Part shown: piece after piece, positions 6,027-12,610 of the stretch
Layout: each line of letters opens with the position of its first letter
How positions within the stretch are numbered: the stretch's first letter is position 1
NCBI GenBank assembly: GCA_016194445.1
Contig: JACQBP010000045.1
Coordinates: 1-44,847 of the forward strand
DNA: 44,847 bases
Origin: Candidatus Liptonbacteria bacterium
GTDB taxonomy: Bacteria > Patescibacteriota > Minisyncoccia > UBA6257 > 2-01-FULL-56-20
Direction: 5' to 3'
Notes under the pieces: generated by a model
The model's database searches: none
The model's input: only the letters and a program-made list of their open reading frames with translations
What the model was told of the DNA's origin: nothing
Position numbers and translations under genes: made by a program

Positions 6027-6758
6027 ATGACCAATAAAATTATACTAGAAATCAGAGCCGGTGCTGGCGGCGACGAAGCCTCAATTTTTGCGGGCGACCT
6101 GGCCCGAATGTACCAGCGTTATGCCGGAAAACGCGGTTGGAATTTTCATATTTTAGACTCTAGTCAAAATAGTCTTGACGGCTATAAAAATCTCGTAGCC
6201 GAACTCTCGGGCGTTGGCGCGTACGATGAATTAAAACAAGAGTCCGGCGTCCACCGCGTCCAGCGTGTCCCCAAAACCGAAAAATCCGGCCGCGTCCACA
6301 CTTCGACTGCCTCCGTCGCCATTTTGCCCATCGTCGAAGCCAAAGAAGTCAATATAAAGGACAGCGACCTCGAAGTCACTTTCTCCCGCGCTGGTGGTCC
6401 CGGCGGCCAAAATGTGAACAAAGTGGAAACAGCCGTAAGAATTTTACACAAGCCCTCTGGTATCGTCGTCGCCTCCCGTGAAGAACGCTCCCAGCACGCC
6501 AATCGTGAAAAAGCCATGGAAGTTCTGCGAGCCAAGCTCTACGAAATAGAACAACAAAAAGTTTCCGGCGACATTGGCGCTTCCCGCCGCGAACAAATCG
6601 GCTCGGCTGATCGCTCCGAAAAAATCCGCACCTACAACTTTCCGGACGACCGCATCACTGATCACCGCATCGGCAAAAAATTTTCAAGAATTGAAGATAT
6701 TATGGACGGTAATATCGATCCCATAGTAAAAGCATTCCGGAAAACGCCACAGAGCTAG
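6027..6758 (+). CDS. prfA: Peptide chain release factor 1, short form lacking the N-terminal helical domain
   Basis: [13 protein letters not shown] start, PKT (PxT) specificity motif, GGQ motif, [10 protein letters not shown]. Confidence 0.92.
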
Positions 6759-6770
6759 GAGGAAACACTT

Positions 6771-6841
6771 GCCCCGTACTAAACGAGAAATCTGAATCTA
6801 TTAATAAGCAGTTTAAATTTTTCTCGTTTTAGTATCGGGGT
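6771..6841 (+). repeat. Palindromic element CCCCGTA...TCGGGG
   Basis: GCCCCGTACTAAACGAGAAA / TTTCTCGTTTTAGTATCGGGGT imperfect inverted repeat. Confidence 0.7.
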
Positions 6842-6842
6842 G

Positions 6843-6881
6843 GAACCCATTATCAAAGCTTTCAAAAAATCCCCCCAAACA
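6843..6881 (+). pseudogene. Displaced duplicate of the prfA 3' end
   Basis: Translates EPIIKAFKKSPQT versus [13 protein letters not shown] at the prfA C-terminus. Confidence 0.7.
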
Positions 6882-6923
6882 ACCCCCTCCTCCGTACAGG
6901 TTTACTATTAAGAGTATAATACG

Positions 6924-7409
6924 GGCTAGCTCGGTGAGAGAGTCAAGCGCTTGGCTCTCAAACCTTAGGTTTCAAGGATTAGCTAGCCAGCTATCAACCA
7001 GTAGAAAGGATGTTGCGGACAAGGGAGCCCTCCATCGGAACTGACCGTTTGGTCGCTTTGGTGGGACAAAAGAGTAGGCTCACGCGCGTAGCGCAAGTAC
7101 CGTACTGGAAGAAAGTCTGACCGCAAAGAGGAAGGGCTATACCAACGGAGACGGGGACCGGGTTATGTAAATTTTTTAAAAACATAATGCGGATTGCCAC
7201 CCCTAACCGAAGTGATGCTCGAAAACTCTGTAGCTGATCCAGAGGCTGGGCGGATAAGTTCGAGGGTTGTACTGTCCGTCGCTAACACACCCCGAAAGCC
7301 AGAATCTCGCTTCGGCAAGCGAGTAGGAGGCAAAGCCTTTAAAGAAGCCCGCGAACATAGCGCAACACCACCCCGCAGACTTGAGCCGTCTGCGGGGTGT
7401 TTCTTTTTT
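6924..7409 (+). ncRNA. Large structured ncRNA (~480 nt), possibly ROOL-like
   Basis: TATAAT at 6915-6920; many local and long-range helices; 3' intrinsic terminator; no credible ORF. Family assignment is from recalled motifs only. Confidence 0.7.
7369..7409 (+). terminator. Intrinsic terminator of the large RNA
   Basis: CACCCCGCAGAC / GTCTGCGGGGTG 12-bp stem followed by TTTCTTTTTT. Confidence 0.85.
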
Positions 7410-7453
7410 AAAAATAATCTTTTTCAGGTAAAAAACCCGTCAGAGTTTTTTAA

Positions 7454-7948
7454 TTACTCCCTCAAAGTAAACTTCGTATACGCCGGCTGGTGATTCACTA
7501 ATTCTTCCGGCTTAAACCAAACGTTGATTTCGGCTTTCGCTTCTTCAGCTGAACCGGAAGCGTGAATCAAATTAAAAACGCCGATTCCTTTTCCATCCGC
7601 GTGCTTAAAAGAAACGTGGGCGTAATCGCCGCGGATCGTCCCCGGCGCGGCCGACTTCGGCTCCGTCGTCCCCACCATTTTCCGCGCAATTTCAACCATC
7701 TCAATTCCTTCTAAAACTATTGCCACAATCGGCCCGGAAGTGAGCATCTCAATCATAAGCTCTCGCACCTTCTCTCCACGCCGCTTAGCCAAATCATCCG
7801 TGTAGTGCAAACTCGCCGTATCCTTGGCCGAAGCTAAAAGCTTGAGGCCGATGAGCTTCGCCCCCACTCTTTCAAATCGGGTCACAATCTCCCCTATAAT
7901 CCCCCGCTCCAAAACGTCCGGTTTTAACAAAACTAATGTTCTTTCCAT
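7454..7948 (-). CDS. ndk: Nucleoside diphosphate kinase
   Basis: ERTLVLLKPD, PGTIRGDY, NLIHAS. Confidence 0.95.
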   Translation of the reverse strand: MERTLVLLKPDVLERGIIGEIVTRFERVGAKLIGLKLLASAKDTASLHYTDDLAKRRGEKVRELMIEMLTSGPIVAIVLEGIEMVEIARKMVGTTEPKSAAPGTIRGDYAHVSFKHADGKGIGVFNLIHASGSAEEAKAEINVWFKPEELVNHQPAYTKFTLRE

Positions 7949-11927: not shown

Positions 11928-11957
11928 AAAAACAAAACACCCCGCCGAAGCGGGGCA
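11928..11957 (-). terminator. Terminator of rnpB
   Basis: CCCCGC-TTCG-GCGGGG hairpin followed by TGTTTTGTTTTT on the minus strand. Confidence 0.85.
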
Positions 11958-11962
11958 TTTTA

Positions 11963-12610
11963 TGGCAATTCATAAGCGGGATTCTGTCTCGCCCGTCATA
12001 GCTTTCGCGACGGCGGGATTAACGATCATTTATCTGGGCCTTTGATTACTCGCAGGCTCAAGCGGCACTTCCGAAAACAGCTTGCGCTGTTCGGACACGA
12101 CCTTGCACTCGATAAGGATTTAGCCGTTTCACCTCTGTCTTTTTATCCCTATAACAGAGTTAGACCAAACTAGCTTGGGATTGGATCTCCCTCGTCCTTT
12201 CGAACGAGAGCGTCACTGCTCGCACCTCTACGCTTACGCGCGACGGCTGTTAGCCGCTACCTTTTTATCCTGTTTACACAGGAGAGTGTCCCGACTTTCC
12301 TCCCCCCACCACTTTTCATGCCGACTCGAGACTACCTTTTATTCGCTTTACTAATTCTTTATAAGAATTTTTAAACTGCTTCAGCTTTCTTTCTCGAGTC
12401 AGGGCATCTAACTTAGATCGGTAGATTTCACAGTAGACAAGAACGAAAGGACCTCTGTGTTTCGTTGATTTAGTATCACCCGCATTATGCTCAGATAGCC
12501 GACGCTTCAAATCATTAGTGACACCAATATACAACCTACCGTCCTTTGTACTTTTCAAGACATAAACGCAATACATGAAAAGTGGTGGGGGGCGATCGTC
12601 TGAATTACCA
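11963..12610 (-). ncRNA. rnpB: RNase P RNA with ~250-nt insertion in the P3 loop
   Basis: P1 TGGTAATTCA/TGAATTGCCA; GACGATCGC; CR-I GAGGAAAGTCGGGAC; GGTGAAACGGCTAAATCC; GAGTGCAAG; AGATAAATGATCGT; CR-V ACAGAATCCCGCTTA. Confidence 0.93.
12316..12576 (-). CDS. GIY-YIG nuclease family protein nested in rnpB
   Basis: VYVL...LYIGVT, RRL.EHN.G, LVY.E, A..RE..LK motifs; 86 aa. Confidence 0.92.
   Translation of the reverse strand: MYCVYVLKSTKDGRLYIGVTNDLKRRLSEHNAGDTKSTKHRGPFVLVYCEIYRSKLDALTRERKLKQFKNSYKELVKRIKGSLESA

Follow-up and report, generated by a model that had tools for sequence, protein, structure and literature searches.

What is encoded in the 695 nucleotides (nt) that separate the stop codon of a release-factor gene (prfA, 6027–6758, + strand) from that of ndk (7454–7948, − strand) in a 44,847-nt stretch of DNA from Candidatus Liptonbacteria bacterium (assembly GCA_016194445.1, contig JACQBP010000045.1; hereafter the window)? 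An initial annotation, made from the sequence alone, had placed here an ornate, standalone RNA of approximately 480 nt and had suggested a compact relative of ROOL RNA. Comparative analysis indicates that positions 6921–7409 of the + strand are likely to be the gene for a real structured non-coding RNA (ncRNA) of approximately 450–500 nt, representing a new family. Within the searches made, this family is confined to one genus of Patescibacteria. Its novelty is that of an RNA family without a detectable relative, and not that of a demonstrated new mechanism. Bacterial RNAs of more than 400 nt with complex folds are rare, and the known ones include ribozymes, cores of ribonucleoproteins (RNPs) and RNA-only cages.

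Comparative evidence for a structured RNA gene

The RNA gene is known in four distinct versions: the window copy (host genome G000), one copy in each of two further genomes of the same genus (G006 and G005), and one on a metagenome contig (L058). As cut for analysis, they measure 490, 502, 451 and 455 nt, respectively, and the window RNA is homologous over its whole length to the other three. Between the conserved blocks lie unalignable stretches, which nevertheless form helices at equivalent positions. Most of the local helices proposed in the initial annotation have counterparts with different letters at the same relative position in the three other versions.

The proposed helices were scored on three plain MAFFT alignments (A7, A8 and A9), none of which was fitted to the structure; two out-of-register alignments of the 3′ domain were dropped. 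In the 5′ domain (A8, 14 pairs), 96.0% of cells are paired versus 12–46% for slid pairings, two pairs are changed on both sides, and the covariation score was reached by 4 of 500 shuffles. The segment comprising P6, P6a and P7 (A9, 13 pairs) is 90.4% paired versus 43–69%, with six both-side changes (0–1 in slid pairings) and none of 500 shuffles reaching the score. For the Z, Y, W and P9 helices of the 3′ domain (A7, 21 pairs), the values are 86.6% versus 33–51%, seven both-side changes and 1 of 500 shuffles. At most 4 of 500 shuffles matched the alignments in percentage paired or covariation score. In total, the 48 pairs are 87–96% paired versus 12–69% when slid, and fifteen of them are changed on both sides. 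A hand-anchored table gives compensatory changes at 18 of 45 helix positions and two non-pair cells, both in the G006 terminator.

The RNA gene is predicted to possess its own promoter and terminator. The −10 element TATAAT lies at 6915–6920, where the initial annotation had placed it, and G006, G005 and L058 have a TTGACA −35 box and, after a spacer of 16–17 nt, TATAAT or TAAAAT aligned with this element. The true 5′ end of the RNA is probably near 6926–6928. The strong terminator noted in the initial annotation is a stem of 12 pairs (7369–7399), nine of them G–C, followed by TTTCTTTTTT; it closes all four versions, and its stem covaries at three positions. The + strand is favoured because it carries the promoter and the terminator, and because at least nine cells of the proposed helices are G–U, which the opposite strand would render as A–C. 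The features of a standalone structured ncRNA are hence present at the level of sequence: promoter, terminator, compensatory helices and the lack of a conserved open reading frame (ORF).

That the region encodes one or more small proteins is extremely unlikely. The + strand of the window region does hold ORFs of 36, 36 and 99 codons, the longest of which crosses the terminator; as the initial annotation had described, the interval between prfA and ndk is poor in ORFs, all of them short and non-conserved. No ORF is common to the four versions: matches extend over 11–32 amino acids in differing frames and lie under conserved nucleotide blocks. The spacings of conserved blocks across the versions (28, 25, 29 and 28 nt) differ by non-multiples of three.

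Fold of the RNA

Four parts would make up the predicted fold (Table 1). Two hairpins lie in the 5′ domain, and a helix closes the variable centre that follows; next come a bulged hairpin and, on the 3′ side, a three-way junction with a likely pseudoknot.

Table 1 Predicted features of the RNA gene and genes flanking it in the four loci
Feature	Position	Strand	Description
Promoter	6893–6920	+	−10 TATAAT 6915–6920, GAG just before it; CGTACA 6893–6898 at the −35 position
RNA gene as analysed	6921–7409	+	From the first base past the −10 box through the last base of the T run
5′ domain	6924–6988	+	P1, invariant strand, hairpins P2 and P3
P1	6924–6931/6981–6988	+	Encloses invariant AGCUCGGU, P2 and P3
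Invariant strand AGCUCGGU	6928–6935	+	5′ domain
P2 hairpin	6938–6946/6951–6959	+	Loop GCGC (6947–6950)
P3 hairpin	6960–6964/6968–6972	+	Invariant
Variable central domain	6998–7108	+	Closed by P4 (6998–7003/7103–7108)
P6 and P6a	7153–7203	+	P6 7153–7156/7200–7203; P6a hairpin 7158–7192
Candidate pseudoknot X	7218–7223/7259–7264	+	Spans P7
P7 hairpin	7226–7230/7240–7244	+	Loop with conserved GCUGAUC
3′ domain, three-way junction	7243–7338	+	Z, Y, W, joining strand, P9
Z	7243–7247/7334–7338	+	100% paired
Y	7249–7254/7275–7280	+	91% paired, both-side changes
Joining strand	7281–7297	+	17 nt, conserved, contains CCGAAA
W	7298–7300/7329–7331	+	100% paired
P9 hairpin	7306–7312/7317–7323	+	Inside W
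Intrinsic terminator	7369–7409	+	Stem 7369–7380/7388–7399, then T run
Downstream gene, window		Opposite to RNA	ndk
Downstream genes, G006		Opposite to RNA	Two NUDIX genes
Downstream gene, G005		Same as RNA	NUDIX gene
Flanking genes, L058			NUDIX genes on both sides

In the 5′ domain, P1 corresponds to the helix GGCTAGCT/AGCTAGCC of the initial annotation (6924/6981), which a script check located in the window. In the window and in G006 it has eight base pairs (bp), whose letters differ completely between the two; it is weaker in G005. P2 covaries, with up to nine pairs and five compensatory positions, and P3 shows no variation. The central domain is closed by P4, a helix of 5–6 bp that each of the four versions has at an equivalent position, although its letters are unrelated among them, around an interior that is unalignable; in the window it is the annotated helix CCAGTA/TACTGG (6998/7103), likewise located by script, as were TTATGT/ACATAA, CTCGAA/TTCGAG, CTCTG/CAGAG and CTCGCTT/AAGCGAG at their annotated places. 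A purine-rich, CAAAGAG-like linker follows the variable centre.

P6 encloses P6a, which has an A/U-rich loop, together with a conserved bulge, (A)UUGCCA. P6 consists of 4–5 bp; three of its four pairs show both-side changes, and all cells (100%) are paired. Downstream of it, pairing X joins the strand just 5′ of P7 to the interior of Y and corresponds in the window to CTCGAA/TTCGAG. Because this pairing crosses Y and Z, it would form a pseudoknot. Duplexes of 9–12 bp with other letters are found in G005 and L058, and a weak one in G006. Shuffled sequences reached the duplex in 29 of 2000 cases for G000, 82 of 2000 for G005 and 18 of 2000 for L058; for G006, where X is not supported, 678 of 2000 did so. 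A long-range pseudoknot tying the 3′ junction to an upstream strand is likely, with support in three of the four sequences.

The three long-range pairings of the initial annotation are not supported. GCGGACA/TGTCCGT (7015/7273) exists in the window version only and uses 7275–7280, the strand of Y, which covaries in all four versions. GGGCT/AGCCC and TGTTGC/GCAACA, likewise restricted to the window, fall in the stretch preceding the terminator, which two of the four versions have not conserved. The annotated local helix GAGCC/GGCTC (7025/7077) belongs to the variable centre and stands as a candidate.

Two loops of the fold carry self-complementary letters. In all four versions the four letters of the P2 tetraloop are self-complementary (GCGC in three, GGCC in G005), and the P7 loop (7231–7239) keeps GAUC in three of four. 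These loops are compatible with loop–loop contacts between molecules, which is far from proof of them.

Conservation and putative mode of action

Across the fold, conserved letters are concentrated in the strands of junctions, in bulges and in loops. The stems change by covariation, and the peripheral helices drift. Because of this pattern, the RNA is proposed to act in trans through its three-dimensional shape, as a part of an RNP or as a protein decoy, and action with a protein partner appears most likely; any specific partner would be named with much less confidence than the RNA gene itself. Base pairing with mRNAs is unlikely because no single-stranded seed is kept, and control of a neighbouring gene is unlikely because the downstream gene is not kept: it lies on the opposite strand in three of the four loci and its identity differs among them, which argues against a cis-regulatory element.

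ROOL, GOLLD and OLE RNAs assemble with themselves. It is conceivable, and on balance unlikely, that the RNA described here founds a Patescibacteria class of large, shape-driven RNAs that would self-assemble through the P2 and P7 loops, or would be catalytic or ligand-binding. Such an RNA might serve the upstream release factor, which lacks domain 1.

Several points weigh against the reading of the locus as a gene for a structured, shape-dependent RNA. Gene status is read from sequence signals, and transcription is predicted from them. The window copy has a poor −35 box, agreeing with the consensus at three of six positions with a 16-nt spacer, and a promoter scan of the window found no full sigma-70-like site. 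All four known versions come from close relatives; because there are four related sequences only, the shuffle counts overstate significance and are not probabilities. The helices were chosen by eye first and tested afterwards. P1 is weak in L058, and transcription may start downstream of some of its outer pairs. The last two bases of P7 are the first two of Z (7243–7244), such that full-length P7 and Z are mutually exclusive, and P9 is misaligned for two of the sequences in A7, where it is 66.7% paired. Minimum free energy z-scores are modest once the terminator is left out (−1.7 to −3.7), and those of the opposite strand are similar for three of the four versions. Finally, the pattern of conservation is the sole basis for the proposed shape-dependent mode and protein partner.

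An RNA of approximately 450 nt that is strongly promoted and retained in a 0.9-Mb genome suggests a real trade-off of cost and benefit, and its four versions form a compact, naturally variable sequence set for structure work. The importance of the family is limited by its four sequences, its single genus and the dispensability of the RNA.

Homologues and distribution

The G006 copy was found by BLASTN over 61 related genomes, in which it is alignable at its two ends only, with 78% identity; the same search otherwise gave one 26-nt chance match. The release-factor gene was located in all five further species of the genus, and the stretch downstream of it was then read. Synteny after prfA revealed the G005 copy, which BLASTN had missed. 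At the same site, the RNA is absent from G001, G002, G003 and G004. It is accordingly present in three of the seven species of the genus, as a single copy in each genome, and is dispensable, being missing from the other four.

Motif scans extended the search. Among metagenome contigs, a scan for the 5′ motifs returned 25 loci, of which two carry the RNA (one identical to G006, the other being L058); the remaining 23 comprise one 23S rRNA (L055), 14 members of one unrelated repeated family and eight chance matches. A strict scan for the 3′ motifs, with one genome per species, returned 52 loci, two of them real (identical to G006 and G005) and the other 50 scoring at most 24 bits with R2, a covariance model of the 3′ domain. 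This model scored 90–100 bits on all four versions; among 40 genomes searched with it, three matched strongly (96–100 bits) and three reached approximately 19.6 bits. R1, a covariance model of the 5′ domain with its P1 pairs set two columns off, gave three strong matches (76–90 bits) and four at approximately 18 bits over 125 genomes of the family. A sample of 400 further genomes of the order contained no instance of the exact three-block 3′ pattern. Viral contigs gave no match to the 5′ pattern and 24 loci for the 3′ pattern, all at or below 18.5 bits with R2, and BLASTN found no match in phage and plasmid sequences. Beyond the genus, the RNA was not found in the family, order, phage and plasmid sets searched.

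It is distinctly unlikely that the conserved region is non-functional, either as a 3′ tail or terminator region of prfA or as neutral intergenic DNA that is alike through kinship. No terminator was found between prfA and the RNA in G006 or G005, so that prfA transcripts probably read through; the carriers are close relatives, and the region was lost in four of seven species without evident harm. However, three of the four versions have their own consensus promoter, the conserved blocks stand amid unalignable stretches that keep their helices, fifteen pairs are changed on both sides, and the gene upstream of the RNA in L058 is a NUDIX gene, not prfA.

Patchiness could also be explained if the RNA belonged to a mobile or defence-type element, serving some as yet unrecognised system as its guide, scaffold or satellite RNA. 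The next gene varies by locus (ndk, or NUDIX genes on either strand), and a 9–12-nt direct repeat borders the RNA gene of G006 on both sides (L003, approximately 1090–1110 and 1640–1655) and occurs once in G004 (L008), right after the prfA stop, where the RNA is missing. This repeat could be a target-site duplication or a deletion scar. In the window, a relic of a prfA 3′ end precedes the RNA. Against such an element, no transposase, integrase, nuclease or reverse transcriptase adjoins the RNA in any of the four loci, each genome has one copy, viral, phage and plasmid sequences gave no matches, and the direct repeat is seen at one locus only. In each of the three genomes that offer enough context, the RNA gene directly follows the short prfA gene, as would fit vertical inheritance accompanied by losses. 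We consider the mobile-element explanation improbable.

Comparison with known RNAs

A scan of the window at Rfam gathering scores gave no matches. With all 4227 families (Rfam 15) at E ≤ 10, the region 6700–7500 gave five chance-level matches (E 1.3–6.5), none to a large RNA; four of the five are to the terminator on the minus strand. In the main texts of the open-access papers searched, no such RNA was found in Patescibacteria; supplements, for example the list of 224 motifs accompanying PMC5737381, lie outside that scope, and this list could bear on novelty.

Membership of the ROOL family, which the initial annotation had proposed, was not borne out. The ROOL model (RF03087, 574 positions) gave nothing at E ≤ 10 in the whole genome, in which 47 candidates were scored, and the model was also silent in 14 of 14 control genomes. 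According to PMC5737381, ROOL RNAs average 581 nt and often lie beside tRNA genes and within prophages. Judged against that account, the RNA described here is likewise a large, standalone bacterial RNA with a complex fold and a patchy distribution. It differs in its length (451–502 nt), in its Patescibacteria host genus, in the lack of tRNA neighbours (ARAGORN found no genes in the window, and no tRNA gene is present in the 44.8 kb) and in the lack of a prophage or phage match. It also has fewer conserved junctions and pseudoknots, with two junction domains (P1–P3 and Z/Y/W) and the candidate X, a junction count that is a lower bound since the variable centre lies outside the resolved part.

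The present RNA can be grouped loosely with GOLLD, OLE and raiA RNAs as an ornate orphan; GOLLD and OLE gave no match in the all-Rfam scan of 6700–7500, in which their two accessions were not singled out by name. That the RNA is a compact, diverged member of ROOL, GOLLD or OLE could draw on its ornate and patchy character, on the purine-rich linkers that the initial annotation described as ROOL-like, and on the self-complementary P2 loop, which would allow RNA–RNA contacts. The blank model searches, the absence of tRNA, phage or plasmid company and the smaller size, with support for two junction domains and a single candidate pseudoknot, make it highly improbable. What stands of the initial annotation is an ncRNA gene among the housekeeping genes of a small, Patescibacteria-type genome, and its fallback of a new large RNA class is favoured by the evidence; the likeness to ROOL is not supported.

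Among housekeeping RNAs, RNase P RNA is similar in size and also has its own gene. In this genome it is encoded in the window at 11957–12350 (− strand), matching RF00010 over its full length at 67.8 bits. This score is below the gathering score of 100 bits, and the standard Rfam scan of the window misses the gene for that reason. The transfer-messenger RNA (tmRNA) lies on another contig (124 bits). The RNA described here is therefore not a copy of RNase P RNA or tmRNA, since the genome has its own copies elsewhere; with no gene found by ARAGORN, the exclusion of tRNA, tmRNA and RNase P RNA in the initial annotation holds. One stretch of the window RNA resembles what we take to be the conserved P4 strand of RNase P RNA; it belongs to the variable centre, and the other three versions have not preserved it.

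A strongly diverged housekeeping RNA, such as that of the signal recognition particle (SRP), 6S RNA or a second RNase P RNA or tmRNA, or else a piece or mimic of 23S rRNA, is a very unlikely identity for the RNA. In favour of such an identity, Rfam models find neither SRP RNA nor 6S RNA in the genome. SRP RNA was rejected: RF00169 and RF01854 are blank in the genome, the SRP proteins that would bind it (Ffh M domain, SRP-type GTPase) were not found, and the RNA is missing from sister species, as would not be expected of a housekeeping RNA. The metagenome 23S rRNA L055 shares AGCUCGGUGAGA and AAACCUNAGGUUUC, both motifs of the 5′ pattern, plus five further bases, a match that was selected by a pattern built from those same motifs. 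A detached piece or mimic of 23S rRNA was also rejected, the genome's own 23S rRNA having an intact domain III segment that is unlike the RNA beyond approximately eight bases. The large-subunit rRNA models gave no match in the all-Rfam scan of 6700–7500.

Genomic context

The host genome measures 0.89 Mb and is 99% complete. In the window, the RNA gene has genes for EF-P, response regulators, the release factor, NDK and AspRS as neighbours. NUDIX hydrolase genes adjoin the RNA gene in three of the four loci, on varying strands (L003 1630–2651; L009 43–920; L058 2–184 and 746–1249); this adjacency may be plain synteny, as G004 has the order prfA–NUDIX without the RNA. In G003 (L011), the place of the RNA downstream of prfA is taken by an unrelated stretch of approximately 330 nt that has a site resembling a promoter and a hairpin resembling a terminator; this stretch may encode another small RNA.

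Between prfA and the RNA promoter, the window contains a hairpin of approximately 85 nt (6770–6845) that occurs once in the genome. It is followed by the prfA 3′-end relic (approximately 6842–6885), which reads EPIIKAFKKSPQ and agrees with the end of the live gene at 23 of 35 nt. The hairpin and relic suggest a rearrangement that would also have damaged the −35 box of the window copy.

The release factor encoded upstream is short (243 amino acids). Its PCRF match begins at profile position 100, and the N-terminal domain is therefore missing. Those sister species in which the gene is complete have the same short form, in frames of 242–268 amino acids; in G001 the contig end cuts the gene off. 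A second release-factor paralogue of 326–341 amino acids, with 41–42% identity, is also present.

The blank SRP searches extend to the protein families in G000: PF02978 (Ffh M) and PF00448 (SRP54-type GTPase) gave no match, and no SRP-type DTAGR (G3) motif was found in a fitting frame. PF00448 matched none of 40 relatives and one of 100 genomes sampled across the phylum, the latter weakly (25.9 bits). SecY is present in G000 (1.5e-99). The 23S rRNA gene of the same genome (C25:1459–8848, − strand) spans approximately 7.4 kb versus a model of 2925 positions, which points to large insertions within the gene.

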